Shown: positions 5,123 to 41,140, counted from the stretch's first letter. The stretch is 64,000 nt of DNA from Gemmatimonadales bacterium (GCA_035280265.1 DATEGE010000005.1:983-64982); one strand, 5' to 3'. The notes: generated by a model from the letters alone, not told the origin. Translations and numbers: made by a program.

Positions 5123-5138
5123 GGAGAGAAAATATAGA

Positions 5139-5223
5139 GGCGACGGATGAGAATGCGACTGATGATAAGGCGACGACGATGAGCGACGGATGAAGGGCGC
5201 GACGGACGAAGCGGCGATGATGG
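5139..5223. repeat. Tandem array of about six 13-15-bp units, consensus GGCGACGGATGAnnA
   Basis: Read directly: ggcgacggatgagaa tgcgactgatgataa ggcgacgacgatgag cgacggatgaagg gcgcgacggacgaa gcggcgatgatgg. It is the inverted counterpart of the array at 5683-5757. Confidence 0.85.
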
Positions 5224-5297
5224 CAATGCGTGCAATTCGGGTGCGACCGGCGACGAAACGATAAAGGTTGCCAATAACGGCCCCGTTAGGTTGCCAA

Positions 5298-5667
5298 ATG
5301 GTCAAGTGCGAACGGCTACATGCCTGGCGCATGGCCCACGAGTTCGCCAAAGCGGTATATCGCGTCTACCCAAGCGTTTCCGAAGAGCGAGCTGTACGGG
5401 ATCGTCTCACAGATGCGGCGGGCTTCGCTCTCCGTTCCCACTAACATTGTCGAGGGCACAGCCAAGCGGGGGCCGGGTGAGTGCCGCCGCTTCCTCGATA
5501 CCGCCTGGGGCTCGCTTGCAGAGATGTGGTACGTGCTTCTGTTCCGCGCGGAGATGGAACTCCTAACGCCGGAGCAGCGACGGGACCTAGAGCGACTTCG
5601 CTCCAGAACTGCCAAGCTGTTGTGGGGTCTGTACCGAACGGTGGCAGCGCGCGCTAGGAGCTCGTAG
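5298..5667 (+). pseudogene. Four-helix-bundle protein gene (23S rRNA intervening-sequence protein / Avd-like family) interrupted by a +1 frameshift
   Basis: The frame of ATG 5298 gives MVKCERLHAWRMAHEFAKAVYRV and stops after 50 codons. The conserved core QAFPKSELYGIVSQMRRASLSVPTNIVEGTAKRG...FLDTAWGSLAEM continues in track ORF 5320-5667. Removing one T near 5367 joins them into one 122-aa ORF. Confidence 0.7.
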
Positions 5668-5682
5668 CTGCCGAGCGCCTTA

Positions 5683-5757
5683 CCATCCCTCGCCTTGTCA
5701 TCCCCCGCCTCGTCATCCCCCGCCTCATCATCCCTCGCCTCATCATCCGTCGCCTTC
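5683..5757. repeat. Tandem array of five 15-bp units, consensus TCATCCCyCGCCTCr (reverse complement of the 5139-5223 motif)
   Basis: Read directly: ccatccctcgccttg tcatcccccgcctcg tcatcccccgcctca tcatccctcgcctca tcatccgtcgccttc. The last unit overlaps the final codons and stop of the DUF1015 gene. Confidence 0.9.
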
Positions 5758-7011
5758 TACCCTCCGCAGCACCAGCCCGCTGGGCACCTTCGGGACGAAG
5801 TACGTCGACTTGGGCGGCATCACGTCGCCCGCGTCCGCCACCGCGAACACCTCCGCGACTTTGGTGGGATTGAGGAGCACGGCGGCCGCCGCCCGGCCGC
5901 CCCGCACCGCGTCGAACGCCGCTCGGGGATCGGGGGTGTAGGCGAGCGATGGCGTGGCGGGCCCCGCCCCGAGGATGTGCTGCACGACCAGCGCCTCGAT
6001 GCGCGCCACGTCGAGCGCGCGAACCGCCGCGCTGCGACCCAGCTCCGGCACCGCGTCGAGCGACACCGTTGGCTTGAGCACCAGCGTGACATCGTACGCG
6101 TCGGGGAACGCGACGATGCACGCCGTGCGCTCGCGCCCTAGCTCGGCCAGACGCTCGACGCGATCCATGCACGGTGCCACGCGGCCGACGTCGAACCACT
6201 CACGCCATGCCGCGACGAGCTTGGTTGGGTCGCGGCCCGCCCCGAACACGATCCGATGCGTGGGAAGGATGGTCAGGCCAGGATCTCCCGCCGGGACGAT
6301 GAACGCGAGCACGCGGTCGGCCGCGGGATGCTCCTGGGCATACGCCACCGCAGTCTCGTAGCGGTGATGGCCGTCGGCGATGTACAGCTGGTCCCGGCCG
6401 GCCAGCCGGGCCAGCTCGACCGCTGGCTCGCCGGAGACTGCCCACTGGCGGATGCCGACGCCGTCGAACTCGGCACGCGCAGCGGGCACCGCGGACGCCT
6501 GCCGCACCAGGGCGCGCGCCAGCGCACCATCGCCATCGGGGGCGAGCAGGAAGATGGATTCGAGGTTCGCGCCCGTGGCGCGCAGCAACGCCAGCCGATC
6601 GGCCTTGGGAGCGGCGTGCGTCCGTTCGTGCGGCCGTACGCGCCGCGACGAAAATGGCTCCGCCCGTAGGGCCGCCAGCATGCCGAGGCGCGTGCGCCGC
6701 TCGCCGGTGGGGAGCTGATAGTCTTGCGCCACCACGTATACCGACTCTCCGGGATCGCGCCGCAACACGCCCGCGGCTCGCCACGCCGCGAGTAGAGCGG
6801 CGGCATGGGCGTAGCGATCCTCGTTGGCTCCCCCCCTCCCCCTCGGTGGCGCTTCCGGCAACATCAGATTCACGATATTGTGGGGATCACGCGCTGCGAG
6901 TCGCGCACGGTCCTCCGGGGAAACGACGTCGTACGGAGGAGCGATGAGCGCGCTCAGGCGATCCGTCGCGGCATACCGCTCGCCCTGAAACGGTGCCACC
7001 AGGGGCGGCAT
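5743..7011 (-). CDS. DUF1015 family protein
   Basis: Start chosen at ATG 7011 (MPPLVAPFQGERYAATDRLSALIAPPYDVVSPEDR), which matches the usual DUF1015 N-terminus. The track ORF extends to 7173, but that would overlap the divergent MazG-like gene. Confidence 0.75.
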   Translation of the reverse strand: MPPLVAPFQGERYAATDRLSALIAPPYDVVSPEDRARLAARDPHNIVNLMLPEAPPRGRGGANEDRYAHAAALLAAWRAAGVLRRDPGESVYVVAQDYQLPTGERRTRLGMLAALRAEPFSSRRVRPHERTHAAPKADRLALLRATGANLESIFLLAPDGDGALARALVRQASAVPAARAEFDGVGIRQWAVSGEPAVELARLAGRDQLYIADGHHRYETAVAYAQEHPAADRVLAFIVPAGDPGLTILPTHRIVFGAGRDPTKLVAAWREWFDVGRVAPCMDRVERLAELGRERTACIVAFPDAYDVTLVLKPTVSLDAVPELGRSAAVRALDVARIEALVVQHILGAGPATPSLAYTPDPRAAFDAVRGGRAAAAVLLNPTKVAEVFAVADAGDVMPPKSTYFVPKVPSGLVLRRVEGDG

Positions 7012-7041
7012 CTCGGCGTTCACGTTGGCTTGGAGCCTCCC

Positions 7042-7362
7042 GTGCCTCTGCGCGAAGCCCAGCAGACGGTCGATCGCTGGATCGGCCAATATAGAGAAGG
7101 GTATTTCCCGCCGCTCACGAACCTCGCACGGCTCACGGAGGAGGTCGGTGAGCTGGCGCGCGAGCTGAACCACAGGTTCGGCGAAAAGACCAAGAAGCCG
7201 GAGGAAGCGGAAGGCTCCGTAGCCATGGAACTCGCCGACATCCTGTTCGTGGTCATCTGCCTCGCGAACTCACAGGGGATCGACCTCGATCGGGCGTTCG
7301 CCGACATGATGCAGAAGGTCACGTCCCGCGACGCCGATCGCTGGACCAGGAAGGCACGCTGA
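7042..7362 (+). CDS. MazG-like nucleotide pyrophosphohydrolase (small single-domain type)
   Basis: GTG 7042 is preceded by GGAG 6 nt upstream. MPLREAQQTVDRWIGQYREGYFPPLTNLARLTEEVGELARELNHRFGEK matches the YpjD/MazG-like family. The track ORF start (6805) is over-extended. Confidence 0.75.
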   Translation: MPLREAQQTVDRWIGQYREGYFPPLTNLARLTEEVGELARELNHRFGEKTKKPEEAEGSVAMELADILFVVICLANSQGIDLDRAFADMMQKVTSRDADRWTRKAR

Positions 7363-8248
7363 CCTCGTCGTAGAGGCGCTGGTAGGATACGAGACGGTCG
7401 GGATCGAACGCACCCTGCGCCGCCGCTTGGCGCAACGCGCACTCGGGCTCCGCCAGATGCCGGCAGTTGTCGAACCGGCACTGATCGAGAAAGCGCCGGA
7501 ACTCCGGAAAACACACCGCCAGGAGCTCGGGGTCGATGCCCCACGTGCCCACCTCGCGCAGGCCCGGCGTGTCCACCACGTAGCCGCCTGTCACGAGCGG
7601 CACGAGCAACGCCGCTCGCGTCGTGTGCTTGCCTGTGTCCCATTTCGCGCTGATCTCCCCGATCCCGAGTTGCAGCCCCGGGTCGAGGGCGTTCAAGAGG
7701 CTCGATTTGCCGACCCCCGATGCGCCCGCGAGCACCGAGGCGCGGCCACGCAGCAGGTCGCGGAGTGCCACCAACCCTTCCGGCTGCCGCACCGACGTGG
7801 CGAGCACCTGGTAACCGGCGGGGCCATAACGGCCCAGCAGCGCAGCGAGCGCGCTGCGGTCGAGGTCGAGGTCGATCTTGTTGAGGACCACGACCGCGGG
7901 GATGCGGTTCGCCGCCGCGATGACCAGGAACCGGTCCAGCATGCGGGGATTCAGGTCGGGACTTCGGGCCGACCCCACCACGACGACCTGATCGACGTTC
8001 GCGGCGATCGGCTGCGCGCGTGGGCGCGCGCCTGCGGCGCGACGCGCGAGCAGGCTGGCACGACGTCGTAGGCCGGAGATGGTGGCGTGTCCGTCGGCGT
8101 GCAGCTCCAGCTCCACGACGTCTCCGGCCACCACGCGGTCATCGTCCCGTTGCTTCAGCCTGCCACGCAGCACAGCCGTCACCGTCCCCGTGTCGGTGTG
8201 GACGCGATAGGTCGCGCCGGTCCGCGCCAGCACGACTCCCGTGGTCAC
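7319..8248 (-). CDS. rsgA: Ribosome small-subunit-dependent GTPase A
   Basis: GTG 8248 is preceded by GAAGGAGGG. Motifs: VVLNKIDL, LAGASGVGKSSLLNAL, GKHTTRAALLVPL and the C-terminal zinc knuckle CRFDNCRHLAEPEC. A GTGA overlap joins it to the upstream gene stop. Confidence 0.9.
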   Translation of the reverse strand: MTTGVVLARTGATYRVHTDTGTVTAVLRGRLKQRDDDRVVAGDVVELELHADGHATISGLRRRASLLARRAAGARPRAQPIAANVDQVVVVGSARSPDLNPRMLDRFLVIAAANRIPAVVVLNKIDLDLDRSALAALLGRYGPAGYQVLATSVRQPEGLVALRDLLRGRASVLAGASGVGKSSLLNALDPGLQLGIGEISAKWDTGKHTTRAALLVPLVTGGYVVDTPGLREVGTWGIDPELLAVCFPEFRRFLDQCRFDNCRHLAEPECALRQAAAQGAFDPDRLVSYQRLYDEVSVPSWSSDRRRGT

Positions 8249-8577
8249 CCGCTGCCCTCCTTCACCGGGCGCGCCGCGGCGCGTTCGATGCAGCCGTCGA
8301 GGTGCAACTTCACCTCGGCGAGCGTCAAGGCCAGGAGCGGCGCCAGGGCCTCGGCGGGGGTTGCGCCCCATCCCAGGTAATCTGTCTCGAGGTGACCGAC
8401 CGGGCGGTCGCCGGCACTGGACCAGCGGATGAACAGCAGGGCGGCGCCGTAGCGCCCGCGCGCGTCCGGGGCGTCGTCCACGAACGTTCCGACGGAGTAG
8501 GACTGGCCGTCACTCCCGGCGAACGCCGGCGCGCGCTCGTGCACCCGTTGGTAGCCGCCGAGCGTCCCGTCGGTCAA
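8245..8577 (-). CDS. Hypothetical protein (about 110 aa)
   Basis: Third positions are G/C-rich. A candidate TTG 8577 forms a TTGA overlap with the proline dehydrogenase stop, and its own stop forms a GTGA overlap with the rsgA start. Sequence ...GTLGGYQRVHERAPAFAGSDGQSYSVGTFVDD...LFIRWSSAGDRPVGHLETDYLGWG. The start is uncertain and no family was recognised. Confidence 0.5.
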   Translation of the reverse strand: MTDGTLGGYQRVHERAPAFAGSDGQSYSVGTFVDDAPDARGRYGAALLFIRWSSAGDRPVGHLETDYLGWGATPAEALAPLLALTLAEVKLHLDGCIERAAARPVKEGSG

Positions 8578-9506
8578 CTCCGCCGTAGTGACTCCCGCAG
8601 CACATTGCCGAGCAGAAAGGCGACGTTGGCGGGTCGCTCCGCCAGCCGCCGCATCAGGTAGGGATACCATTGGGTGCCGAAGGGAACGTAGACGCGCACG
8701 TTGTAGCCGTCGCGGCGCAGGGCGAGCTGGAGATCGCGCCGCACGCCGTACAACATTTGAAACTCGAAGCGCGCGGGTTGGATGCCTTTGTCGCGCGCGA
8801 ATGCCTTGGCGTGGGCGATGATGCGCGCGTCGTGCGTCGCGATCGCCGGGTATTGGCCCTTGAGCATGAGCCGCTCCATGCACCGCACGTAAGTGAGATC
8901 GACGTCTCGCTTGTCCGGGAAGGCGATCGCGGCGGGCTCCTGGTACGCGCCCTTGCAGAGTCGGACCCGCGCGCCCAATGCGATCATCTGGTCCACGTCC
9001 GGCTCGGTGCGCCTGAGATACGACTGGAGCACCACGCCGACGTTGTTGCCAAACTCGGGATACAAGCTGCGCTTGAAGAGCTGCAGCGTCCGCTCGGTAT
9101 ACGTGGACTGCTCCATATCGATCCGCACGAACGATCCGTGCGTCGTCGCCCGGCCGACGATGGCGCGCAGGTTGTCGACGCACAGACGCTCCTCGATATC
9201 GAGGCCCATCTGCGTGAGCTTGACCGACACGTTGGCGTCGGCGCCGAAGGGCGCGATCCGATCCAACGTTTCGAGATACGCGTCGCGCGCGGCGTGCGCC
9301 TCCGCCGCGGTGCGCACCGACTCGCCGAGCAGATCGAGGCTGGCGTTGAGCCCGGCGGCGTGCAAGTCGCGGAGCGCCGCCACTCCCGCCTCCACGGTCT
9401 CCCCCGCCACGAAGCGCGCGGCGAAACGGCGAGCGAGCCCGTTGCCGCGGATGAATCGAAAGATTCGGGGCTGCTCGCTGAGCCACAACAGACCGGTGCG
9501 GAGCAA
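8574..9506 (-). CDS. Proline dehydrogenase (monofunctional PutA-like)
   Basis: 310-aa ORF. RFVAGETVEAGVAALRDLHAAGLNASLDLLGE, VSVKLTQMGL and FEFQMLYGVRRDLQ are typical of the proline dehydrogenase family. Confidence 0.85.
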   Translation of the reverse strand: MLRTGLLWLSEQPRIFRFIRGNGLARRFAARFVAGETVEAGVAALRDLHAAGLNASLDLLGESVRTAAEAHAARDAYLETLDRIAPFGADANVSVKLTQMGLDIEERLCVDNLRAIVGRATTHGSFVRIDMEQSTYTERTLQLFKRSLYPEFGNNVGVVLQSYLRRTEPDVDQMIALGARVRLCKGAYQEPAAIAFPDKRDVDLTYVRCMERLMLKGQYPAIATHDARIIAHAKAFARDKGIQPARFEFQMLYGVRRDLQLALRRDGYNVRVYVPFGTQWYPYLMRRLAERPANVAFLLGNVLRESLRRS

Positions 9507-9533
9507 ATGGGGGTAGGGGTTGGGGCGCAGGAG

Positions 9534-11660
9534 CTAGGGGTAGAACTTCGCGTCGCGTCGCGCCTGGTCGCGCAATGCGTCGCTCGGGGCGAAGCGGGCA
9601 CCGTAGCGCTCGGCGAGTCGCTCGAGCTCGCCGACGATGCGAGGGGCGCCGAGGTCGTCGGCGTGGCGAAGGGGACCGCCTCGGAACGGGGGGAATCCGA
9701 AGCCAAAGATGGCACCGACATCGCCGTCGCGGGGTGACCGCACGATGCCCTCGCATACGGCGCGGACCGCCTCGTTCAGCATCACGAGCACCAAGCGCTG
9801 GATGATCTCCGCCGGGCGCGGGCCGCCGTTCGGGTGGGTGCCGATCAGCTCGTACACGGCCGGATCGACGCCTCCCTTCTTGCCTCCCGAGTACTTGTAG
9901 AACCCCTTCCCTGCCTTGCGTCCCAACCGCCCGCTCTTCACCATCCCGGCGAATTCGGCGACGGGCGCGAAGCGCTCGCCGAACGCCTGGTGCATCACGC
10001 CCACCACCTTCTCCCCGACGTCCATCCCCACCTCGTCCAGCAGCGTGATCGGACCGACGGGGAACCCGAATTCCACCATCAAGCGATCGATCTCCTCGAT
10101 CGCGACACCCTCGAGGAGCAGGTGGCCCGCCTCGTTCATGTAGGGGGTGAGAATCCGGTTGATCCAGAAGCCCGGGCTGTCGCGCACCACGATGGCGGTC
10201 TTACCCATCCGGCGCCCGAAGGCGACGGCGGTGCTCACAACGGCCGGGGCGGTGCGCTCGGATGGGATCACTTCGAGCAGCGGCATGCGGGCCACCGGTG
10301 AGAAGAAGTGCATGCCGATCACCTGCTCCGGACGATCGGCGGCCTCGGCGATGCGGTGAATCGGAATGGTCGACGTGTTCGACGCGAACACCGCATCGTC
10401 CGCGCTCGCGGCCTCGACTTCGCGCAGCACCTGCTGCTTCACCTGCAGGTCCTCGAACACGGCTTCGATCACGAGCTCGGCGCGCCCGAAGCCGGTGTAG
10501 CCGTCACCGCCCGAGAGGAGGGCGACGAGGCGGGCGTGCTCATATTTCGTGATGCGTCGCCGCTTGAGGCGGTCGTCGAGGATCTCCCGCGCCGTGGCGA
10601 GCCCTTTCGCGACGCGCGGGAGGTCCGCGTCCTTCATGCGGACGTCCACCCCCGCCTGTGCGATCGCGGTGCCGGCAATCCCCGACCCCATGAATCCGGC
10701 GCCCACGACCCCGAGCCGATGCACGACGACGGGCGCGGGCGGGTTGGGGAACCCGAAATCCTTCTTGAGCGCGGTGGTCGCGAAGAAGATCTGCACCAGC
10801 TTGCGCGACACGTCAGTGACGGCCAGCTGTCCGAACAACTGCGCCTCGCGCTTCAACCCTTCGGTCATCCCGTGCTTCAGGCCATGCTCGACCGCCTCGA
10901 GCGCGGCGGGCGGCGCGGGGTAGTTGCCGCGCGTCTGCTCGAGCACGCGCTTCCTCGCCGCCCGAAACACCAGCCGCCGGCCGAGCGGGTTGCCGTCGAG
11001 CAGCCATCCGGTGAAGCCGCCGGGTCGCTTGCGCCGGGGACGCCAGCCGCCGGCCATGCGCTGCGCTGCGGCGATGGTGATGTCTTTGAGGATGGCGGGG
11101 TGCACCAGCTCGTCCACGATGCCGAGTCGGAACACCTTCTCCGCCCGCTCCACCTTGCCCGCCAGGATGATATCGAGCGCCGCCCGCACGCCGATGAGCC
11201 GGGGAAGGCGCTGGCAGCCGCCCGCGCCCGGCAAGATGCCGAGCTGGACCTCGGGCAGCCCCAGCTGGGTCTTGGCGTGGTTGGACGCGACCCGGTAACG
11301 GCAGGCGAGCGCGAACTCGAGCCCGCCGCCGAGACACGCGCCGTGTATCCCAACGGCGACCGGCTTGGGGAAGCGCGCCACGCGGTCGAGCAACTCCTGG
11401 CCTTCGGCGGAGAGCCGCTCCGCCTCGGCGGCGGTGGTGAGCTTGACGAACTCCTCGATGTCCGCGCCCGCGATGAAGCTGTCGGGCTTTCCCGAGAAGA
11501 ACGCCACGGCTCGCACGGCGGGGTCACGCTCCAACGCCTCGAATGTCGCGAGCACGTCCTGCTTGACGGCGGCGGAGATCTTGTTGACCGGCTCGCCCTG
11601 GAGATCGAACGTGACGACGGCGATGCCCGGCTCGGCGAGCTCCCACGTGAGCGCGATCAA
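9534..11660 (-). CDS. Multifunctional enoyl-CoA hydratase / 3-hydroxyacyl-CoA dehydrogenase (FadJ/FadB-like)
   Basis: TTG 11660 forms a TTGA overlap with the thiolase stop, giving [21 protein letters not shown] crotonase region ([24 protein letters not shown]) is followed by an NAD-binding region ([14 protein letters not shown]). The track ORF upstream part (to 11996) is Arg/Pro-rich and unlikely. Confidence 0.85.
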
Positions 11661-12916: not shown

Positions 12917-13040
12917 TACATTCCCCTCCCGTCAGTCAAGCTCGAAACCTACTACGAGGCTGGCCGTCGGGCCAAGCCGGAGAACGCCGACGAGCGACAC
13001 GCCCTTTTCGCATCGCACGCGCGCCGAGGCGCTCGAGTCG

Positions 13041-14669: not shown

Positions 14670-14685
14670 TACTATCTCCCTCCCG

Positions 14686-21671: not shown

Positions 21672-21773
21672 AACGCGGAACGCGGAGCGCGGAACGCGGA
21701 ACTGATGAAGGAGGTCGCGTGCCGAGAGACGCACGCTCTGCTGTTCCGCGTTCCGCATTCCGACTTCCGCGTT
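21672..21773. repeat. Long imperfect hairpin whose arms are inverted arrays of 7-bp tandem repeats (GCGGAAC)
   Basis: The left arm is 21672-21702 (aacgcggaacgcggagcgcggaacgcggaac). The right arm is 21743-21773 (gttccgcgttccgcattccgacttccgcgtt). By my alignment 27 of 31 positions are complementary. The 40-nt loop contains a small palindrome gcgtgc-n8-gcacgc (21717-21736). Confidence 0.85.
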
Positions 21774-23212
21774 CATCCTTTGACCCGCTGCATATCCCGC
21801 CCCACCGTCGTGAGTGCAATGAGGATCACCAGCCCTCCCACCGCCCCCGCTGTGGGGAGCAACAGCATGGCAGGCCGCAAGCCGAACCGGTCGGACAGAT
21901 AGCCGATGAGCGGCGGAGCGATCGCATCGCCCGCGAGGTGGGAGTACAGGACGAAGGCGCCGAGCACCGACGCCCGCACGGCGGGCGGGACGACGTCCAG
22001 GATCACCGCCGACAGCGGCCCGTTGTACCAGGAATAGAGGAAGAACGTCGTGAACAGCAGGGGAACGAACAGCCGCAACTCGTCAATGAGGAGCAGCGCC
22101 GCGCACACCGGCCCGCCCAGCACGAAGCCCGCGCCCGACACGACGACCCGCCCACCGCTCCAGCGCGCCAGCAGCCAGTCCCCGGTGCGCCCACCGAACA
22201 ACGCGCCCAGGGCGCCGCCCGCGAGCCCCCACACGCCAAAGTGGCGTCCGACCGTTGCGACTGGCAGGCCGTGCGTGCGCTCCAGAAAACTCGGCGCCCA
22301 GGCGATCAGGCCATTGACCGCGAAGGTAACGAGCGCCCCGCCGACGAACATCCAGATCAAGGTGGGCGTGCGCAGGACGGTGCCGGCCGCCACCAGGAAG
22401 TCGCTGAGCGCGCTGGCGGCCACCTCCCCGGCTTCGCTGGTGCCCCGCACGGCCACGGGGACCAGCCGGACGACCGTCCAGACGATGCCGACGCTCACAC
22501 ACGCGGCGAACACGGCTGTGTCGACGCCCGGCGGCAGGCCCTGAAACAGATCGAGCGCGCCGCTGACCACGGCCCCGGCGACCGTCAACCAGATCAGCGG
22601 CGCGCCGAGCACTAAGGCTTGCCGCAGCCGCAGGCGTCCCCGATCGAGCCAGCTTTCCACCGACGCCCGGATCGTGGGCGGCGGTCGGCGGCGGGGCTCG
22701 CGTAACCGGGACGCGAGGAGCGCCAGCACGAAGCCCGGAGCGCCCAGCGCGACGAACGCCGCCCGCCAGCCGTAGCGCTGGGCGAGCACCCCGCCCAACC
22801 AGATGCCGAGCACGCCGCCGAACGCCATCCCCACGGAGTAGATGCCGATCGCGAACGCACGACGTTTGCCCGGGAAGAATTCCGCGATGAGGGCCTGGGC
22901 CGCGGGGCCGTAGCCCGCCTCCCCGACGCCGACCAGCGCACGGCAAAACATCAGGTGCCAGAAGCGCTGCACCGTCGCCCCGAGCGCCGTGAACACACTC
23001 CACAGCCCGACGCCCGCGGCGATCACGGCGCGGCGCGATTTCAGGTCCCCGAGCACGCCGAGGGGAAGGGCGGCGAGCGACAAGACGATCACGTACGCAG
23101 AGCCCAGCCACCCGAGCTGCTGATCGGACAGCGTGAGCTGGCGCTTGATCGGCTCGAACAGAGCGAAGACGACGTTGCGGTCCGTGTAATTGAGGAGGTT
23201 GATCAGCGTCAA
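21773..23212 (-). CDS. MFS transporter (Spinster-like type)
   Basis: 479-aa ORF from TTG 23212 (LINLLNYTDRNVVFALFEPIKRQL..., about 12 hydrophobic segments). That start would truncate the first helix. The in-frame upstream sequence reads ...SRAYAAYALGLL with no ATG/GTG/TTG. A CTG at 23317 lies behind an AGGAGG and is a candidate true start. Confidence 0.8.
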   Translation of the reverse strand: MTLINLLNYTDRNVVFALFEPIKRQLTLSDQQLGWLGSAYVIVLSLAALPLGVLGDLKSRRAVIAAGVGLWSVFTALGATVQRFWHLMFCRALVGVGEAGYGPAAQALIAEFFPGKRRAFAIGIYSVGMAFGGVLGIWLGGVLAQRYGWRAAFVALGAPGFVLALLASRLREPRRRPPPTIRASVESWLDRGRLRLRQALVLGAPLIWLTVAGAVVSGALDLFQGLPPGVDTAVFAACVSVGIVWTVVRLVPVAVRGTSEAGEVAASALSDFLVAAGTVLRTPTLIWMFVGGALVTFAVNGLIAWAPSFLERTHGLPVATVGRHFGVWGLAGGALGALFGGRTGDWLLARWSGGRVVVSGAGFVLGGPVCAALLLIDELRLFVPLLFTTFFLYSWYNGPLSAVILDVVPPAVRASVLGAFVLYSHLAGDAIAPPLIGYLSDRFGLRPAMLLLPTAGAVGGLVILIALTTVGRDMQRVKG

Positions 23213-33522: not shown

Positions 33523-33525
33523 TTC

Positions 33526-34680: not shown

Positions 34681-34697
34681 GTTTGGCGCGGCGGCGG

Positions 34698-35462
34698 TCA
34701 CAAGCCGGTAGGATGGTCCAAGAACGTCCAAGGGAGATGGAACCGCGCGTTCACGTGCTCCGCCAACGCCTTCACACCCACCGTTTCGGTCGCGTAGTGG
34801 CCGGCATAGAACACGTTCAGGCCGAGCTCCTCGGCGTCGAAGAAGGTGTGATGTGGCCCCTCACCGGTGATGAAGGAATCGAGCCCGGCGGCCGCGGCCT
34901 GGGCAATCATCGAGCCAGCTGCCCCGGTGACGATGCCCACGCGCCTCGCTCGCTCCGGGCCGAACGACATCACGCGCGGCGCCGCGCCCAGCAGCTCCGC
35001 AAGTCGTCGCTCCAGCGCGACTCGCGAAGTGTCGACCTCTCCCCACACGCCGATGGGGACGCCGTACTGCTCGCCGAATGGACCTCGGATGGAAACGCCC
35101 AGCTGCCGGGCGAGCACCGCGTTGTTGCCCACGTCGGGATGTAGATCGAGCGGCAGGTGGGCGCTGTAGACCGCGATGTTGGCCGATACCAGCGTCGCAA
35201 CCCGACCGTAGTCGCGCCCGGTCAGCGGGCGCTGCCCTCCCCAAAAGAGACCGTGATGGACGAGCAAGAGGTCAGCGCCTTGCTCCGCCGCCATGCGCGC
35301 AGTGGCCCGGCACAGATCCACGGCGGCGGCTACGCGGCTCACTGTCCCCGCGTTGGAAAGTTGGAGGCCGTTCAGGGCATGCGACGCGTCCGGGACGTCA
35401 CTGACCCGCAGGTAGCCGTCCAAGTAAGCCACCACCTCGACGAGCGTGAAGGGCGTTGTCAC
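34698..35462 (-). CDS. Nif3-like dinuclear metal centre protein (YbgI/GTP cyclohydrolase 1 type 2 homologue)
   Basis: 254-aa ORF from GTG 35462. Motifs: NGLQLSN, ADLLLVHHGLFWGG, GHYATE. Confidence 0.85.
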   Translation of the reverse strand: MTTPFTLVEVVAYLDGYLRVSDVPDASHALNGLQLSNAGTVSRVAAAVDLCRATARMAAEQGADLLLVHHGLFWGGQRPLTGRDYGRVATLVSANIAVYSAHLPLDLHPDVGNNAVLARQLGVSIRGPFGEQYGVPIGVWGEVDTSRVALERRLAELLGAAPRVMSFGPERARRVGIVTGAAGSMIAQAAAAGLDSFITGEGPHHTFFDAEELGLNVFYAGHYATETVGVKALAEHVNARFHLPWTFLDHPTGL

Positions 35463-35554
35463 AAGCGCCAGTAAGCATATTATCTCACCAGATTATCGAC
35501 AGTGATGCGAGATTCCCACATCGGATGGACTGATAACTCTATCTATAGCAGCGA

Positions 35555-35591
35555 GATACGAAATCCACACGGCGAACGGCGGCCGTGTGGA
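35555..35591 (-). terminator. Candidate intrinsic terminator after the bactofilin gene
   Basis: On the minus strand: tccacacggc-cgccgttc-gccgtgtgga (perfect 10-bp stem, 8-nt loop; stem 35564-35573 / 35582-35591). It is followed by tttcgtatc. It begins 12 nt after the bactofilin stop. Confidence 0.6.
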
Positions 35592-35602
35592 AATCCCGGA
35601 CT

Positions 35603-36019
35603 TCAGTAGGCACGCTGCGCCGGTGCCTTTTCGACGGGCACGCTCTCGGCCTCGACCTCGGCCTCGCCCATCCGCACTACGCCGTTGATCTCGCCGCCTT
35701 CCTGTACCAGCAAGCGCTTCGCCACAACGTCGCCATGGACCACGCTGGTGGACTGGATCTCGATGCGTTCGTCGGCGCGAATACTGCCGCGCACCTCCCC
35801 GCCGATGATCGCCTCGCGCGAAATCACATCGCCCTCGACTTCGCCGCCTTTGCCGACGAGTACCTGCCGGGCCGCCCGGACGGTGCCGACGACGGTGCCT
35901 TCGATCTTCACTACGCCATCGGCGGTGATGTCGCCCACGACGCGCATTCCGGTGCCGATGATGGAAAGTCCGGCCTCCGACTCCAGGCCCCCCTGTCCTT
36001 TTTCGACGAACATCGCCAT
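35603..36019 (-). CDS. Bactofilin (polymer-forming cytoskeletal protein)
   Basis: 138-aa ORF. The SD AGGAGAA lies inside the end of the upstream gene. The beta-helical repeat pattern GDITADGVVKIEGTVVGTVRAARQVLVGKGGEVEGDVISREAIIGGEVRGSI is characteristic. Confidence 0.9.
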   Translation of the reverse strand: MAMFVEKGQGGLESEAGLSIIGTGMRVVGDITADGVVKIEGTVVGTVRAARQVLVGKGGEVEGDVISREAIIGGEVRGSIRADERIEIQSTSVVHGDVVAKRLLVQEGGEINGVVRMGEAEVEAESVPVEKAPAQRAY

Positions 36020-36020
36020 G

Positions 36021-36821
36021 TCAGTTCTCCTGTTTCACGACCGTGAGGGGATCGAGCGACTTGCCCTCGCGGCGGATTTCGAAATGGAGATGCGGTGCGG
36101 TCGATCGACCCGAATTACCGGAGAGCGCGATCACCTGCCCCGCCTGCACCGAATCGCCGTCGCGTACCAGGATGCGCGAAGCGTGGCCATACATGGTCTC
36201 ATACCCGCTCGCGTGCCGCAAGAGCACGAACAGTCCATAGGAAGGGTCGGTTCCGGCCGCCTCGACCATGCCACCGCCCGCAGCGCGCACCGGCGTCCCT
36301 GCGGGGACCGCGATGTCAATGCCGGGATGGGATTCGGCGGGGTCTCCCGGGCGGACCTGGCCGCGCGTCACGAAGCCATGCACGTCGAGCGGCCAGTGCG
36401 AAGGCTCCGAGGGACCCGGCTCGTATCGCAGCGGCGCGGACGGAGGCCGGCTGCGCACCGCGATCGCACGCATCAAGTCGGTCGGGGCGGCAGTGGCCTT
36501 TTCGCGAGGAGCTCGGACGCCGAGGATCGAGCGCAGCTCTTGATAGTTCGCCTCGGCGCGATTCAGCGCGGCGGCGAGCTGCTGCACCCTCCCGTTCTCC
36601 TCCTCGAGCCGTGCCACCTCGCGCTCCAATCCGGGGACGCGGGCCGCTGCCCGCGTGATCGGCCCGGCGAACGCGAAGAACAAGACGACGAGCAGCGCGA
36701 TCACGAGCGCGGTCCACTTCCCTGCCTCGAGCGCCCACACCGGCACGCGATATTGTCGCGAGGCGAGATCTCCGTCAGTATGGACGACGATGGTGACGCG
36801 ACGGTCCTTGCGTGGTTTCAT
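36021..36821 (-). CDS. Bitopic M23 (LytM-domain) metallopeptidase with a coiled-coil linker
   Basis: The cytoplasmic N-terminus is MKPRKDRRVTIVVHTDGD. The TM segment is WTALVIALLVVLFFAF. The coiled coil is LEREVARLEEENGRVQQLAAAL. M23 motifs: HPGIDIAVPAGTPV, GNSGRSTAPHLHFEI. An ATGA overlap joins it to the parB stop. Confidence 0.9.
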   Translation of the reverse strand: MKPRKDRRVTIVVHTDGDLASRQYRVPVWALEAGKWTALVIALLVVLFFAFAGPITRAAARVPGLEREVARLEEENGRVQQLAAALNRAEANYQELRSILGVRAPREKATAAPTDLMRAIAVRSRPPSAPLRYEPGPSEPSHWPLDVHGFVTRGQVRPGDPAESHPGIDIAVPAGTPVRAAGGGMVEAAGTDPSYGLFVLLRHASGYETMYGHASRILVRDGDSVQAGQVIALSGNSGRSTAPHLHFEIRREGKSLDPLTVVKQEN

Positions 36822-37711
36822 CCGTCGAACGGCGTGCCCAGGATCAGCTCGAGGAGGCGCGCGAGGTCGTCGTTCGAGTAGAAGTTGACGTGGATCTGCC
36901 CCTTCCCTTTGGCGCGCAGTGACACCCGCACGTCCGTACCGAGGCGCCGGCGCAGCGCGTCCTCGATGCGTCGCACCTCGGGCGCCTGCCCCATGCCCTT
37001 TTTCAGACGCGGGCGGCGGACCGGGGCGCGGCCGCCGCGCACCCGGTCTTCCACGTCGCGCACAGAGAGGCCCAGGTCCACCGCTTCGGTGGCCAGCGAA
37101 GTCACGAGCCGGGCGTCCTCGAGCGCGAGCAGCGCGCGCGCGTGCCCCACCGAGAGGCGGGCCTCATGCAGCAGCGCCAGCACGGCGGACGGCAGCTTGA
37201 GCAGGCGCAGCGCGTTGGCGACGGTGGAGCGGTCGCGCCCGACGGCGTCGGCGACGTCTTGCTGGGTGAGGCTGAATTCAGCGATCAGGCGCTCGTACCC
37301 ACGCGCCTCGTCCACCGGCGAGAGGTCGTCGCGCTGCAGATTCTCGACCAGTGCGAGCGTCAACACCGTCCGATCGTCCACCTCGCGCTTCACGGCGGGG
37401 ATCCTCTCCCAGCCGAGCGCCTGGCACGCGCGGAGCCGCCGTTCGCCCGCGATCAGCTCGAAGCCGCCATTGACGCCGGACACCGGGCGCACCACGACCG
37501 GCTGAAGCAGGCCCGCCTTACGGATCGACGCCTGGAGCTCCTCGAGCGCAGCGGCGTCGACGTCGCGGCGCGGCTGGTACGGGTTCGGACGGATGTCCGA
37601 GATCGCCAACTCTACGAGACTACCTTCGCGCTCGGCCTCTTCGCGGGTCGGACCCAGCAGCGCTTCGAGACCCCGACCGAGACGACGGCGACCTGCGATG
37701 GTTTCGGTCAT
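36818..37711 (-). CDS. parB: Chromosome partitioning protein ParB (Spo0J)
   Basis: Motifs: GRGLEALL, IRPNPYQPRRD, LLQPVVVRP, ELIAGERRLRA. An ATGA overlap joins it to parA. Confidence 0.95.
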   Translation of the reverse strand: MTETIAGRRRLGRGLEALLGPTREEAEREGSLVELAISDIRPNPYQPRRDVDAAALEELQASIRKAGLLQPVVVRPVSGVNGGFELIAGERRLRACQALGWERIPAVKREVDDRTVLTLALVENLQRDDLSPVDEARGYERLIAEFSLTQQDVADAVGRDRSTVANALRLLKLPSAVLALLHEARLSVGHARALLALEDARLVTSLATEAVDLGLSVRDVEDRVRGGRAPVRRPRLKKGMGQAPEVRRIEDALRRRLGTDVRVSLRAKGKGQIHVNFYSNDDLARLLELILGTPFDG

Positions 37712-38541
37712 GCGGTCATCTCCGGCAGCGGTTCAGCGGTGGGCGGGGCGGGGGAGGGAGCAGTCGCGGCGTCGTGCTCGACCCGGCGGATCAGCTCCTG
37801 CGCCACCGCGAGATAACTTTTCGCCCCCACCGACTGCACGTCGTACAACAGGATCGGCTTTCCGAAGCTCGGCGCCTCGGCAAGCCGCACGTTGCGGGGG
37901 ATCGAGATGCCGAACATCTGCGAGCCGAAATACTCTTTCGCCTCGTCGGCCACCTGCTTGGACAAGTTGAGCCGCGCGTCGTACATGGTGAGCAGCACAC
38001 CGTCGATGGCGAGCGCCGGGTTGAAGTTGCGCTGCACGAGCTTGACGGTGTTCAGCAGCTGGGAAAGGCCCTCGAGGGCGTAATACTCGCACTGAATCGG
38101 AATGAGCAGGCTGTCCGCGGCGGTCAGCATGTTGAGGGTCAGCAGACCGAGCGACGGCGGGCAGTCGATCACGACGTACTGATACTGCTCACGGATGTCG
38201 CGCAGCGCGCGGCGCATCATGGTCTCGCGCCCTTGCTCGTTCACGAGCTCGAGCTCGGCACCCACGAGGTCTTGCGTCGCGACGACGACGTCGAGATACG
38301 GGAAGTGCACGTGCGTGAAGCGGGCGTCCGTGAGCGGACGGCCGTCGAGGAGTGCGTCGTACAGGGAGTAGCGAATGCGATCGCGCTCGATTCCGACACC
38401 GCTGGTCGAGTTGGCTTGAGGGTCCGCGTCGACGAGCAGGGTCTTGCGCTCGGCGGTGGCGAGGGAAGCGGCGATGTTGACCGCTGTGGTGGTCTTGCCG
38501 ACACCACCCTTTTGATTGGCGACAGCGATGACGCGCGACAT
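37708..38541 (-). CDS. parA: Chromosome partitioning ATPase ParA (Soj)
   Basis: MSRVIAVANQKGGVGKTTTAVNIAASLA is the deviant Walker A. The protein is 277 aa with a Pro/Ala-rich C-terminal tail. Confidence 0.95.
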   Translation of the reverse strand: MSRVIAVANQKGGVGKTTTAVNIAASLATAERKTLLVDADPQANSTSGVGIERDRIRYSLYDALLDGRPLTDARFTHVHFPYLDVVVATQDLVGAELELVNEQGRETMMRRALRDIREQYQYVVIDCPPSLGLLTLNMLTAADSLLIPIQCEYYALEGLSQLLNTVKLVQRNFNPALAIDGVLLTMYDARLNLSKQVADEAKEYFGSQMFGISIPRNVRLAEAPSFGKPILLYDVQSVGAKSYLAVAQELIRRVEHDAATAPSPAPPTAEPLPEMTA

Positions 38542-38629
38542 GCCTATAAGATATTATATATCAATGTGTTATGTTGTGGTGTTGTTTGAGGCTTGAATAT
38601 AGGGATTGGTACACCGTGCGTAAAGAGCG

Positions 38630-38645
38630 AGTTTCACGTGAAACC
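38630..38645. promoter_or_regulatory. parS centromere-like site 1
   Basis: aGTTTCACGTGAAACc. The 14-bp palindromic core is identical to the canonical tGTTTCACGTGAAACa. Confidence 0.9.
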
Positions 38646-38653
38646 AGGGCGAG

Positions 38654-38669
38654 AGTTTCACGTGAAACA
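38654..38669. promoter_or_regulatory. parS centromere-like site 2
   Basis: aGTTTCACGTGAAACa, a second perfect core 24 bp from the first. It lies between the mnmG stop and the parA start. Confidence 0.9.
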
Positions 38670-38686
38670 CCACGGTTCCGACGAGG

Positions 38687-40555
38687 TCAGGCGACCCGCC
38701 GTCGCCAGCGCATCGCCTCGACCACCAGGTTGTGGAGATCGCTGGGCGACACACCGGGGATGCGGGCCGCCTGAGCGAGCGAGGTCGGTCGAACGCGATC
38801 GAGCTTCTCGCGCGCCTCCGTCGCGAGACTCTTGAGGTCGGGGTAGGGCAGGTCGACGGGCAGCGCGAACGACGCGAGCTCCCCGAGACGCTTCGCGGCT
38901 TCGCGCTCCCGCGCCAGATAGCCTTCATAGCGCAGTTCGATAGCCGCGCTCGCCACCGCGTCGTCTTCGGCGGCCACGTCCGCCCCTGCCGCGTCGAGCA
39001 GCGCTCGCAGTGAGACGCCCGGTCTGCGTGCCACATTCGCCACCCGCTCCGGCTGATCCAACTGTGTGCCGCTCGAGGCGAGGGGCCCTGCGGCGGCGCG
39101 CGGGGTGATAGTGGTCGACCGCGCCAGCGCCAGAACATCCTCTTCTTGCGCAAAGCGCCGCTCGGCCACACGACGCTCGGCTTCCGACAGCAGTCCCAAC
39201 CGCTCGGCGAGCGGCGCCATTCGGCGGAGCGCATTGTCCTGCCGCAGGAGCAGCCGGAATTCGGAGCGCGAGGTGAACAATCGGTAAGGCTCGTCCACGC
39301 CGCGTGTCACGAGATCGTCCACCAGCACGCCGATGTAGGCGTCGTCGCGCCCCAAGATCACAGGCTCCGCGCCCCGGATTCGCCGCACTGCGTTGATGCC
39401 CGCCACCACACCCTGGCCGGCTGCTTCTTCGTACCCCGTCGTTCCGTTGATTTGGCCGGCGAAGAACAGGTGCTCGAGCGGCTTCGTCTCGAGCCACGGC
39501 GTGAGCTGGATGGGCGGGTAGTAGTCGTACTCGATGGCGTAGCCCGGTCGGGTCATCCGCGCACCCTCGAGCCCCGGTACCGCGCGCAGGAACTCGAGCT
39601 GCACGGCGACGGGCAGTGAGGTGGAGAGCCCGTTCACGTACAACTCGTGCGTGTCCAGCCCCTCGGGCTCGAGGAACACCTGGTGCCGCTTGGCGTCGGG
39701 GAACTTCACGATCTTGTCTTCGACCGACGGACAATAGCGCGGGCCCCGTCCGCTGATAGCGCCGCCGTACAGCGCCGACTCCCGGAGGTGGGCGCGGATG
39801 ATGTCCTTCACTTCTTCCCCGGCCCAGGTGATCCAGCACGGGACCTGTCGCGGCAGCTCGGCGCGCTGGTAAAAGGAGAACCGGTAATCGGCACCGTCGC
39901 CGTCTTGGCGCTCCACGCGCGACCAATCGACCGTTCGCCCGTCCACGCGCGGGGGAGTGCCGGTCTTAAAGCGTGACACCGTAAGTCCTAGTGATTCAAT
40001 ATGTTCTGCAACATCGACCGCGGGCTGATCGCCCGCCCGACCGGCGGGAATCTGTGTATCAGTGCCGAGGTGAATGCGGCCGCGCAAGAAGGTGCCGGCG
40101 GTGAGCACCACCGCCTGGGCTCGGAAGCTCCGCCCGTCGGCGGTCACGACGCCGGCGACCCGCGCTCCCTCGAGAATGAGCCGGGTGACCATGCCTTGAG
40201 TCAGCTCGATCTCCCGAAACCCTTCGAGCAGGGAGCGCACCGCGCGGCGGTACAGCGTGCGATCGCACTGGGCTCGCGGCGCCCACACGGCGGGGCCCTT
40301 GGAGCGATTCAGCATCCGGAACTGGATGGTCGCGCGATCGGTCGCCCGTCCCATGATGCCGCCGAGCGCGTCGATCTCGCGCACCACGGTGCCCTTCGCG
40401 ATGCCGCCGATGGCCGGATTGCAAGACATCTGGCCGATCGTGTCGAGGTTGGAGGTGAGTAGCAGGACCCTCGCACCCAGGCGGGCCGCCATCACGGATG
40501 CTTCGGTACCGGCGTGCCCGGCGCCGACGACGATCACGTCGTAGTCGATGCTCAT
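38687..40555 (-). CDS. mnmG: tRNA uridine 5-carboxymethylaminomethyl modification enzyme MnmG (GidA)
   Basis: 622-aa ORF. MSIDYDVIVVGAGHAGTEASVMAARLG...GQMSCNPAIGGIAKG, with family-wide similarity throughout. Confidence 0.95.
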   Translation of the reverse strand: MSIDYDVIVVGAGHAGTEASVMAARLGARVLLLTSNLDTIGQMSCNPAIGGIAKGTVVREIDALGGIMGRATDRATIQFRMLNRSKGPAVWAPRAQCDRTLYRRAVRSLLEGFREIELTQGMVTRLILEGARVAGVVTADGRSFRAQAVVLTAGTFLRGRIHLGTDTQIPAGRAGDQPAVDVAEHIESLGLTVSRFKTGTPPRVDGRTVDWSRVERQDGDGADYRFSFYQRAELPRQVPCWITWAGEEVKDIIRAHLRESALYGGAISGRGPRYCPSVEDKIVKFPDAKRHQVFLEPEGLDTHELYVNGLSTSLPVAVQLEFLRAVPGLEGARMTRPGYAIEYDYYPPIQLTPWLETKPLEHLFFAGQINGTTGYEEAAGQGVVAGINAVRRIRGAEPVILGRDDAYIGVLVDDLVTRGVDEPYRLFTSRSEFRLLLRQDNALRRMAPLAERLGLLSEAERRVAERRFAQEEDVLALARSTTITPRAAAGPLASSGTQLDQPERVANVARRPGVSLRALLDAAGADVAAEDDAVASAAIELRYEGYLAREREAAKRLGELASFALPVDLPYPDLKSLATEAREKLDRVRPTSLAQAARIPGVSPSDLHNLVVEAMRWRRRVA

Positions 40556-40561
40556 GAGGCA

Positions 40562-40591
40562 ATTATAGGGGGTGTGGGATACAGACGTCGA
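40562..40591 (-). promoter_or_regulatory. Candidate promoter giving a leaderless mnmG mRNA
   Basis: On the minus strand TATAAT (40567-40562) lies only 6 nt upstream of the mnmG ATG. TCGACG/CGACGT lies 17-18 nt further upstream. There is no Shine-Dalgarno. Confidence 0.3.
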
Positions 40592-40612
40592 GGTAGACGC
40601 CGAGGGTGCCGT

Positions 40613-40632
40613 GACGCCGAGTGGATGTGAGG
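40613..40632. repeat. Inverted-repeat arm (left) flanking the four-helix-bundle gene
   Basis: GACGCCGAGTGGATGTGAGG is the perfect reverse complement of 41093-41112. It ends 2 nt from the gene stop codon. Confidence 0.9.
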
Positions 40633-40634
40633 AC

Positions 40635-41012
40635 TTAGGGCAGAGGAACCCTCGACGCGGCGCCGCTTATCTTCCGCAACAGTCCGTACAAGGTACGCCC
40701 TGTTTCGGTCACCAGCGCTTCGAGCCTCCCGAAGTCAGCGGGCTGGATGTATCCAAGCTCACGCGCCATTTCGACTATCGTTTCAACCTCGGCTAAGGAG
40801 CCGCGGGCAGTGTCGAGGAAGCGACGGTATTCTCGTGAACCGTGTCGAGTGTTGCCTTCTGCGATGTTCAGAGGCACGCTGTAACAGGCACGTCGCAACT
40901 GGTCGGCTAGAGCATGCTGTTCGTAATCAGGGAAGCCGCGAGAGGTTCGGACGCACTCAATGGCGAGCCGCTGTGCATGCTGCCAAGCCTTTAGGGTCTT
41001 GTAGTGGGCCAC
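40635..41012 (-). CDS. Four-helix-bundle protein (23S rRNA intervening-sequence protein / Avd-like family), intact
   Basis: GTG 41012, 125 aa. YKTLKAWQHAQRLAIECVRTSRGFPDYEQHALADQLRRACYSVPLNIAEGNTRHGSREYRRFLDTARGSLAEVET is typical of the family. It uses many A/T-ending codons, unlike neighbouring genes. Confidence 0.85.
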   Translation of the reverse strand: MAHYKTLKAWQHAQRLAIECVRTSRGFPDYEQHALADQLRRACYSVPLNIAEGNTRHGSREYRRFLDTARGSLAEVETIVEMARELGYIQPADFGRLEALVTETGRTLYGLLRKISGAASRVPLP

Positions 41013-41092
41013 GGAAGAACAGTGTCATCGAGTGGAGCACAGAGCGGTATCGAAAGATTGCCGGCGGTGCCTTTCCTATGCTTGCCCTCACC

Positions 41093-41112
41093 CCTCACAT
41101 CCACTCGGCGTC
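41093..41112. repeat. Inverted-repeat arm (right) flanking the four-helix-bundle gene
   Basis: CCTCACATCCACTCGGCGTC is the perfect reverse complement of 40613-40632. It lies 80 nt upstream of the gene start and 29 nt after the ABC permease stop. Confidence 0.9.
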
Positions 41113-41140
41113 TACAGCGGCTTGGCGTCTGCCTCACCGT

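Follow-up and report, generated by a model that had tools for sequence, protein, structure and literature searches.

The question raised here is why two genes of one family sit in short spacers between protein-coding genes, each within a pair of long inverted arms. To our knowledge, the genes for the "four helix bundle proteins" of PF05635, which are very numerous in genomes, have no known function. Two of them are located in a stretch of 64,000 nucleotides from a Gemmatimonadales bacterium (GCA_035280265.1 DATEGE010000005.1:983-64982; this whole stretch is called the window below). Members of the family are encoded in intervening sequences (IVSs) of 23S rRNA, and they are designated here as IVS proteins (IVPs). 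IVSs bearing an open reading frame (ORF) are already known; what appears to be new is the arm-ORF-arm design outside rRNA. The origin of IVSs and the role of the conserved ORF have been open questions since the early 1990s (PMC4990558), and the origin is not settled, with transposition-remnant and mobile-element hypotheses on record (PMC4990558). With moderate confidence, both loci are interpreted as IVS-type cassettes outside rRNA, whose arms would form an RNase III-type duplex in read-through transcripts.

Inverted arms around PF05635 genes

Profile searches and tblastn revealed two PF05635/TIGR02436 genes in total in the window; no third copy was found with tblastn within the 64 kb. Copy 1 matches PF05635 with the E-value 1.7e-27 (96.2 bits) and TIGR02436 with 89.2 bits, and copy 2 with 1.3e-31 (109.3 bits) and 105.3 bits, respectively. 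All of these scores are above the family cut-offs (33.8 bits for PF05635 and 24 bits for TIGR02436), which copy 1 passes only once a 1-nt frameshift is taken out. The two proteins show 39% identity to each other, and the nearest solved structure to the IVP protein is that of XCC0516 (PDB 2GSC). Copy 1 occupies a spacer of 620 bp, from the start of a gene for an 89-aa protein (4853-5122, minus strand) to the stop of a DUF1015 gene (5743-7173, minus strand). Being on the plus strand between two minus-strand genes, it is antisense to its neighbors. Copy 2 occupies a spacer of 585 bp, from the stop of an ABC-2 permease gene (41141) to the start of mnmG (40555), with all genes on one strand.

An earlier note, made from the sequence alone, had proposed two IVS-protein cassettes in spacers of minus-strand gene arrays, opposite in orientation and different in arm sequence. 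The profile matches and the arms bear this out: copy 1 is antisense and copy 2 is sense, and no arm sequence is common to both. The note also stated that rRNA, reverse transcriptase, template/variable repeat, transposase and integrase are not found nearby, and this holds. Rfam detected no rRNA in the 64-kb window. The genes within 4-5 kb of either copy, as annotated at orthologous loci, do not encode a reverse transcriptase, transposase or integrase, and the repeat scan found no template/variable repeat. The neighbors of both cassettes are metabolic or housekeeping genes. The purine-rich upstream arms with GGATG and the complementary downstream arms described in the note stand as arms; GGATG is present in both copies but only partly conserved among orthologs. 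The note missed the frameshift in copy 1 (5298-5667), owing to which these 370 nt are not an open frame.

A scan of the whole window returned three strong inverted repeats, two of which are the arm pairs of copies 1 and 2. No scatter of the arm motifs over the rest of the 64-kb window was seen. In both cassettes, one arm extends at its outer end as far as the stop codon with which the upstream host gene closes, and the outer end of the other arm adjoins the downstream start region. The arms are 30-80 nt long, which is in the range of an IVS-type terminal stem (~20-28 bp or more). In modelled transcripts, the minimum-energy fold closes on the arms for the sense strand of copy 2 and for both strands of copy 1, with z = -4.4 and -4.7. 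The arm of copy 1 on the 5' side of the gene consists of GCGACGGATGA-type units and ends 15 nt from the ATG of the 89-aa gene, while the DUF1015 stop codon (5743-5745) and the last four codons before it fall within the opposite arm; the best ungapped pair is 35 nt at 83%. The arms of copy 2 pair in an inner part (40613-40642/41083-41112, 30 nt, 90%) and an outer part (40583-40604/41121-41142), with a core of 20 perfectly complementary nucleotides, GACGCCGAGTGGATGTGAGG, and the outer end of the 5' arm overlaps the permease stop codon (41141-41143).

The third strong inverted repeat (21672-21773) is composed of ORF-less heptamer arrays, (AACGCGG)x4.4 and (GTTCCGC)x4.6, pairing over 31 nt at 87% around a 40-nt loop with its own small hairpin. 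It is located in the spacer between two minus-strand ORFs, where its outer end adjoins the stop of the upstream ORF (TCA at 21773-21775). Like the short IVSs that have no ORF, it may represent a form of the IVP cassettes without cargo.

The conservation of the arms was analyzed with a score defined as the DNA local alignment of the 160 nt upstream with the reverse complement of the 130 nt downstream. This score, together with random-segment and cross-locus controls, replaced RNAduplex energies with mononucleotide shuffles, because purine-rich and pyrimidine-rich flanks pair even when shuffled and the shuffle test is therefore uninformative. Among the relatives of copy 2 (61-94% identity), which include a few at loci other than permease-mnmG, 51 of 53 distinct loci have a score of at least 30 (median 61), while only 1 of 276 random segments of matched geometry and loci reaches 30 (median 18, maximum 33). 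In these 51 relatives, the arms extend over 30-66 bp, and the median arm length in the orthologs of copy 2 is 48 nt. Their geometry is constant: the 3' arm begins a median of 1 nt past the stop codon, a distance of ~80 nt separates the 5' arm from the start codon, and the loop between the arms is 435-550 nt.

The arm sequences of these relatives vary by lineage and include AGACGCCGAG-type units, three copies of the 22-nt CTAGACGCACAGACGCGAAAGG, GGGTAGACGG units and GAGCCGCT units. The median score of pairing between the arms of the same locus is 61, against 36 for pairing across loci, and 26 of the 53 loci score above the 90th percentile of their own cross-locus scores. This excess of self pairing indicates that the arms co-evolve. 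The permease is only ~60% identical, so that neutral sites are saturated and the arm complementarity must be actively maintained. In all Gemmatimonadota loci fetched, strong inverted repeats bracket IVP genes only. One contig (Ga0137411_1312780) contains nested perfect inverted repeats of 38-150 nt within the mnmG coding sequence; they are most likely a fold-back assembly artefact, and the contig was left out of the arm statistics.

Similar arms were found beyond the relatives of copy 2. Among distant metagenomic paralogs (31-44% identical), 40% score 30 or higher, a level that none of 108 random segments reaches. Their arms are hexamer arrays (CTTGCT, CTTACT, CTTAAT) with the pyrimidine-rich arm on the 5' side, and none of these paralog loci is within rRNA. 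Distant IVP paralogs beside tRNA genes (L070, L071, L073, L074, L076 and L092; one of the genes is tRNA-Sec) have no flanking inverted repeats where scorable, and tRNA processing sites might be in place of arms there.

Plasmid-borne copies from PLSDB served as an independent set from cultured organisms (n = 13). Matched inverted tandem-repeat arrays, mostly of heptamers, are present in 10 of the 13, compared with 5% of 130 random segments. The armed copies are from Gemmatirosa, Nostoc, Calothrix, Anabaena, Geminocystis, Stanieria, Leptolyngbya, Picosynechococcus and Azospirillum. The arms are (GGAGGGC)n in Gemmatirosa kalamazoonensis, (TAGGGTG)n in Calothrix, (AGGGAAC)n in Nostoc C052, and (GTAGGGA)n in Nostoc edaphicum, whose copy is antisense between nrdB and nrdA. 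The copy of Geminocystis is between a parA-like gene and parB, that of Anabaena sp. 90 between cas6 and cas4, and that of Picosynechococcus between cmr2 and cmr3. The three exceptions have, respectively, only a 3' array, beside an insertion sequence (IS) element; direct instead of inverted arrays; and no array. On the plasmid pPg_01 of Pseudanabaena galeata (~1201-1560 of locus L189), the IVP gene lies between cas6 and cas4 and has long arrays of 7-nt units on both sides, in direct and not in inverted orientation, (AAAAGCT)n upstream and (AAAAGCC)n downstream.

The copy from Azospirillum lipoferum was revealed by an Rfam match to the large subunit rRNA to be inside the 23S rRNA gene, at helix 45. 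This IVS is flanked by TCAGAGGACGGATGACAGAGGACGGAGGACAG and its complement, and GACGGATGA is common to its arms (TCAGAGGACGGATGACAGAGGACGG...) and those of copy 1. Arms are present in most of the PF05635 members sampled, from three phyla, and the unit periods are 6, 7, 8, 9-10, 15 and 22 nt. Within the subfamily of copy 2, cassettes 61-65% identical and with a similar arm type are found at other loci, after an oppF-like gene and between genes for a molybdopterin oxidoreductase and an M20 peptidase. BLASTN alignments between cassettes at different loci are confined to the ORF, and therefore common descent of the arms and leader across loci is not demonstrable. From these sequences, the distribution suggests that rRNA IVSs may be one habitat of a much wider cassette family.

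Gain or loss at one site and fixation at the other

Copy 1 belongs to a narrow clade, with one close relative at 97% identity, about ten at 75-81%, and a handful lower. The relatives examined are at the identical site, again in antisense orientation. Empty sites were screened for by scanning a genome collection with DUF1015, which yielded six Gemmatimonadota loci; 74 others were too distant for use. The site is filled in the window and in three relatives (L098-L100), and empty in four Gemmatimonadota genomes (L101, L102, L104 and L105), in which the gap between DUF1015 and the 89-aa gene is ~0-55 bp with neither IVP gene nor arms. When the nearest empty site (L101, DUF1015 79% identical) is aligned to the window, the homology ends at 5759 and resumes at 5135, while the outer arm ends are at 5755 and 5137; the window has 623 bp where L101 has 40 bp. 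As judged from this alignment, copy 1 is shown to be a unit that was gained or lost, with its edges at the arm ends. The 40 nt of L101 (GGATGGTGAAGCGACGGAGAGCGG...) look like about 1.5 arm units; they may have been left behind as a scar when a cassette was lost, or they may have been the seed of the arms.

In a further genome (L103, 4382-4995), the spacer between DUF1015 and the 89-aa gene carries another cargo, a sense-oriented 176-aa DJ-1/PfpI gene (4425-4955). Around this gene there is also an inverted repeat, shorter and made of 8-nt units (CGTCGGACGGTCGGACGG on the upstream side, CCGACCGTCCGACG on the downstream side). Either the spacer is a hotspot of insertion, or cassettes of the arm type can hold genes other than those for IVPs, as this locus suggests.

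Copy 2 shows a different history. Its protein has 982 database homologs at E <= 1e-10, the best 120 of which are 79-94% identical. Every close relative with readable flanks has the gene order ABC ATPase - permease - IVP - mnmG (- parA - parB). The mean identity to the window over 29 distinct loci is 82% for IVP, 81% for the N-terminus of MnmG, and 63% for the C-terminus of the permease, and the divergences of the three are correlated with rho of about 0.4 for all pairs, a value that fits vertical inheritance and exchange alike. A protein as conserved as MnmG indicates a functional gene under strong purifying selection. By these comparisons, copy 2 is an old copy, fixed across an order-level clade and behaving as a resident host gene. 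Conservation at this level is unusual for PF05635, a family commonly viewed as selfish or dispensable.

The earlier note had named presence/absence polymorphism and target-site duplications as features to look for. The former is present at copy 1, with breakpoints at the arm ends, but absent at copy 2, which is filled in every syntenic locus with readable flanks. Target-site duplications were not found at the junctions of copy 1, where the single filled-versus-empty comparison is a weak test. The note would also have been contradicted if most copies lacked flanking inverted repeats, but most do have them, with the counts above for the relatives of copy 2 (51/53), the plasmid copies (10/13) and the distant paralogs (40%). 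A PF05635 element family using stem-forming flanks, as the note supposed, is supported and extended by about 50 distinct orthologous loci with co-evolving arms, the plasmid copies and the 23S IVS. On presence/absence variation, the result is split between the two copies.

Further features of the two loci

Coordinates of the features of the two cassettes, counted from the first letter of the window
Feature	Position	Strand	Description
Copy 1 PF05635/TIGR02436 gene	5298..5667	+	Frame broken by a 1-nt insertion
Copy 1 arm, 5' side of the IVP gene	5137..5217	+	Purine-rich, repeated units of ~15 nt (AGGCGACGGATGAGA)
Copy 1 arm, 3' side of the IVP gene	5676..5755	+	5.3 tandem copies of the 15-nt unit CGCCTCATCATCCCT
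Copy 2 PF05635/TIGR02436 gene	40635..41012	-	Intact, encodes 125 aa, starts with GTG
Copy 2 5' arm (in the gene's sense)	41083..41142	-	Loosely repeated AGACGYYRAG units, then GAGTGGATGTGAGG
Copy 2 3' arm	40583..40642	-	Begins inside the IVP gene, in its final codons and stop codon
Copy 2 leader (5' arm to start codon)	41022..41085	-	Hairpin and U-rich tract in orthologs
mnmG promoter-like site	40562..40591	-	TCGACG, 18-nt spacer, TATAAT; conserved in orthologs

The window has a G+C content of 67.5%, and its nearest relatives are metagenome-assembled genomes of Gemmatimonadales. The cassettes match no PADLOC defence family at E <= 0.01, and an exact-sequence look-up of the copy 2 protein returned no match.

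In copy 1, the first 23 codons are in one frame and the other 99 in another. The frameshift is caused by one extra T at ~5365 (CGCGTCTACC in the window, CGCGCTACC in L098), which is outside any homopolymer run and absent from the near-identical relative L098. The spacer of L098 is identical to that of the window at 614 of 620 positions, and its gene is 97% identical and intact, encoding 122 aa. Because L098 is so similar yet intact, the disruption in the window is, as far as the two sequences indicate, either a very recent pseudogenization or a base-calling error.

The leader of copy 2 contains, in the alignment of its orthologs (A1), a 10-bp hairpin (GGCACGGCA...TGCCGTGCC) followed by a U-rich tract. 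Eight of the 10 pairs covary, and none of 500 shuffles reaches the observed score. The hairpin is decayed in the lineage of the window, where the covariance model matches at 38 bits with three non-canonical pairs. The model matches no other cassette; the hairpin is limited to the mnmG-locus lineage and thus is not a feature of the family. It might terminate the ABC transporter operon, or it might be a stem-loop to which a protein binds.

The promoter-like site of mnmG is the downstream edge of the copy 2 cassette; its -35-like hexamer is inside the 3' arm, and its -10 hexamer ends 6 nt before the ATG (40555). TATAAT-like hexamers are observed 6-9 nt before start codons, for example before mnmG (40562-40567) and upstream of the 89-aa gene (TATATT at 5129-5134), and they suggest leaderless or near-leaderless mRNAs in this lineage. 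A thiamine pyrophosphate (TPP) riboswitch at 49314-49411 on the plus strand (Rfam RF00059, 63.4 bits) is unrelated to the cassettes.

Readings of the cassettes and comparison with known systems

If the two loci are IVS-type cassettes outside rRNA, the arms of any transcript crossing a cassette, on either strand, would pair into a near-perfect duplex of 30-60 bp, and RNase III would cut this duplex as it does in rRNA IVSs. The cleavage would free the cassette RNA with clamped ends and part the flanking cistrons. With such processing, a cassette of either orientation would do no harm within a tight operon spacer or within a helix of rRNA. Cleavage of the duplex by RNase III is the most economical mechanism, because the protein family, the size and the stem match those of ORF-bearing IVSs. 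It would account for the tolerance of cassettes in tight spacers and in either orientation, and also for the position of the 3' arm, which begins at the stop codon, so that the end of the released mRNA would be clamped in the duplex.

Several observations weigh against this interpretation. The cleavage of cassette transcripts by RNase III is inferred by analogy. The covarying hairpin and U-tract between the 5' arm and the ORF of copy 2 look like a terminator in sequence, and if the hairpin ends the upstream operon, both arms would be on one RNA only by read-through. The -10-like hexamers just upstream of the IVP and mnmG starts in the copy 2 orthologs count on the same side, and copy 2, fixed and highly conserved, does not at present behave like a selfish insert. 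Cassettes at different loci were not found to have arm sequence in common, and there is no target-site duplication or direct repeat at the copy 1 junctions in the weak test of the window against L101. When the mismatches in the arms are read in the gene's sense, G.U does not exceed A.C (85 vs 101 for the orthologs, 14 vs 11 for the plasmid copies, and 13 vs 16 for the paralogs), and transversions occur about as often as transitions. The lack of a G.U excess speaks against simple selection on the sense RNA alone; a need for Watson-Crick pairing on both strands, or maintenance or homogenization of the arms as DNA, fits it better than selection on the RNA of one strand. Both strands may matter, since host transcription runs antisense to copy 1 and to several of the cyanobacterial copies.

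The unbiased mismatches also agree with arms that act as DNA, as terminal inverted repeats or hairpin ends of a non-autonomous mobile cassette whose enzyme is encoded elsewhere, with the complementarity kept by hairpin repair or gene conversion and the RNA duplex as a by-product. This is possible, though rather improbable, and it is compatible with the reading as IVS-type cassettes rather than exclusive of it. The breakpoints of copy 1 at the arm ends, the cassettes of 61-65% identity after the oppF-like gene and between the molybdopterin oxidoreductase and M20 peptidase genes, the insertion of the family into many unrelated operons and rRNA, and the lineage-dependent polarity of the purine-rich arm are all in line with it. 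Neither copy has a transposase, integrase or recombinase near it, however, and the junctions of copy 1 lack a target-site duplication. The arm sequences are not conserved between loci, which leaves no common protein-recognition site. The orientation at each locus is invariant in all assemblies examined, without arm-to-arm inversion, and copy 2 is at one locus throughout an order-level clade. The same synteny of copy 2 wherever flanks are readable, and its identity of 82% against 81% for MnmG and 63% for the permease, would be expected of ordinary, vertically inherited host genes. The arms would then be local regulatory devices, either an insulator or terminator or repeated protein-binding sites, possibly for autoregulation by IVP on its own RNA, with no mobility and no excision. 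The conserved covarying hairpin of the copy 2 leader is consistent with this, and periodic arm units would suit multimeric binding. Avd, a homolog from diversity-generating retroelements (DGRs), binds RNA stem-loops of ~9 bp, and DGR RNAs have a long-range duplex flanking the template (bioRxiv 10.1101/2023.10.23.563531). This explanation is nevertheless unlikely. It leaves unexplained why copy 1 was gained or lost between breakpoints that coincide with the ends of its arms, why helix 45 of 23S rRNA holds the same design, and why the family is scattered through unrelated operons. The variable sequence and period of the units (6 to 22 nt, as listed above) are hard to reconcile with one binding specificity, and the leader hairpin is confined to the mnmG-locus lineage.

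A chance or compositional origin of the arms, as generic low-complexity tandem repeats like the cyanobacterial heptamers, was already disfavored and is very hard to credit. Short tandem repeats are common in some carrier genomes, with heptamers throughout Nostoc; the window itself has an ORF-less inverted heptamer pair at 21672-21773; and mononucleotide-shuffled flanks pair fairly well, being purine-rich against pyrimidine-rich. Yet random segments reach the observed scores in only 1 of 276 (maximum 33), 0 of 108 and 5% of 130 cases, each of the only two IVP genes in the 64 kb is enclosed by one of its three strong inverted repeats, and a single unit is found inverted on both sides of the gene, at a fixed position relative to the stop codon. 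Two other candidates were rejected: inversion switching, because the orientation is invariant at each locus, and integron attC sites, because the arms are on opposite sides of the ORF and do not form one downstream palindrome.

A bolder extension of the IVS-type reading regards PF05635 cassettes as widespread "spliceless introns", self-insulating units that colonize any transcribed spacer or rRNA helix. The tandem-repeat arms would make RNase III cut the cassettes out. Spread would proceed through the excised, end-clamped RNA in complex with its own Avd-like pentamer, copied, for example, by a reverse transcriptase supplied in trans, and the arrays would be made or renewed on insertion. This scenario is speculative and doubtful; if it were true, the rRNA IVSs known since 1990 would be the visible tip of the family.

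The reading as IVS-type cassettes recasts the IVS as one habitat of a general cassette, whose non-rRNA copies share the arm-ORF-arm design. This design has been kept for very long at a fixed locus, and it also marks the edges of a gain or loss event. The cassette view may explain the IVP genes wedged within cas, nrd, par and transporter operons, and some of the enigmatic heptamer repeat arrays of cyanobacteria. Since there are cultured carriers, experiments on RNase III dependence, binding of the protein to the arms and excision products are feasible.

Flanking repeats around PF05635 genes outside rRNA were not found described in the full-text literature, a scope outside which most subscription journals fall. 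IVP genes wedged between cas genes have been reported without mention of flanking repeats (PMC3936711), and IVP genes in cas loci are seen here too. Heptamer repeats (among them the short tandemly repeated repetitive sequences, STRR) are widespread in Nostoc and have been called enigmatic, without known function; no link between them and PF05635 genes was found in the literature. The arms of cyanobacterial IVP genes are heptamer arrays as well (AGGGAAC, GTAGGGA, TAGGGTG, AGGTGAC), while the known heptamer repeats have been described as single arrays near promoters or start codons and not as inverted pairs around PF05635 genes.

Avd (PF22296/NF033474) has a homologous four-helix-bundle fold, to which the two proteins show weak profile matches: NF033474 gives 17.6 bits for copy 1 and 24.6 bits for copy 2, against the equivalog cut-off of 80. 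Neither gene has a reverse transcriptase nearby, or long direct or template/variable repeats around it, as a DGR would. The RNA stem-loop binding of Avd and the long-range duplex of DGR RNAs (bioRxiv 10.1101/2023.10.23.563531) are further points of resemblance. Miniature inverted-repeat transposable elements (MITEs) and repetitive extragenic palindromic sequences (REP/REPIN) resemble the cassettes in their inverted ends, intergenic location and lack of an own transposase, as well as in the presence/absence of copy 1 with breakpoints at its ends. They differ in that the cassettes carry a conserved protein gene and have ends made of short tandem-unit arrays. The arms of copies 1 and 2 are not the shared, conserved terminal repeats of a MITE, and no target-site duplication was seen at copy 1 in the one weak comparison.

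RNase III processing stems occur in the precursors of 16S and 23S rRNA and in the early mRNAs of phage T7. They are similar to the cassettes in that, as described (PMC6582327), long-range pairing of flanks makes a double-stranded cleavage site that frees a functional RNA. The unit in a cassette is, in contrast, a small protein gene at many unrelated sites, and its cleavage is only predicted.

The closest parallel is with the ORF-bearing IVSs in helix 45 of 23S rRNA, as in Leptospira and Coxiella burnetii. The cassettes of the window are in spacers between protein genes, and because they are not in rRNA they fall outside the location that defines an IVS (helix 9, 25 or 45). Copy 1 is also unlike these IVSs in being antisense to its host genes, and copy 2 in its fixation over an order-level clade under strong purifying selection. 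The protein family is the same, PF05635, and the total sizes are comparable, 560-620 bp for the cassettes and about 430-760 nt for the IVSs. The upper figure of 760 nt reportedly goes back to Ralph and McClelland in 1993. In both, the ORF is within terminal inverted repeats, with a stem of at least 28 bp (PMC4990558). The IVS of Coxiella, which encodes the S23p ORF, has a terminal stem of 28 bp that is cut by RNase III in its middle (PMC4990558). S23p is reported to be probably not made in vivo (PMC4990558), in contrast to the conserved copy 2. Cleavage of IVSs by RNase III has likewise been reported for Leptospira, Salmonella and alphaproteobacteria (PMC4990558). The likeness extends to the arms themselves in the Azospirillum IVS, in which they are short purine-rich repeats that have GACGGATGA in common with copy 1.

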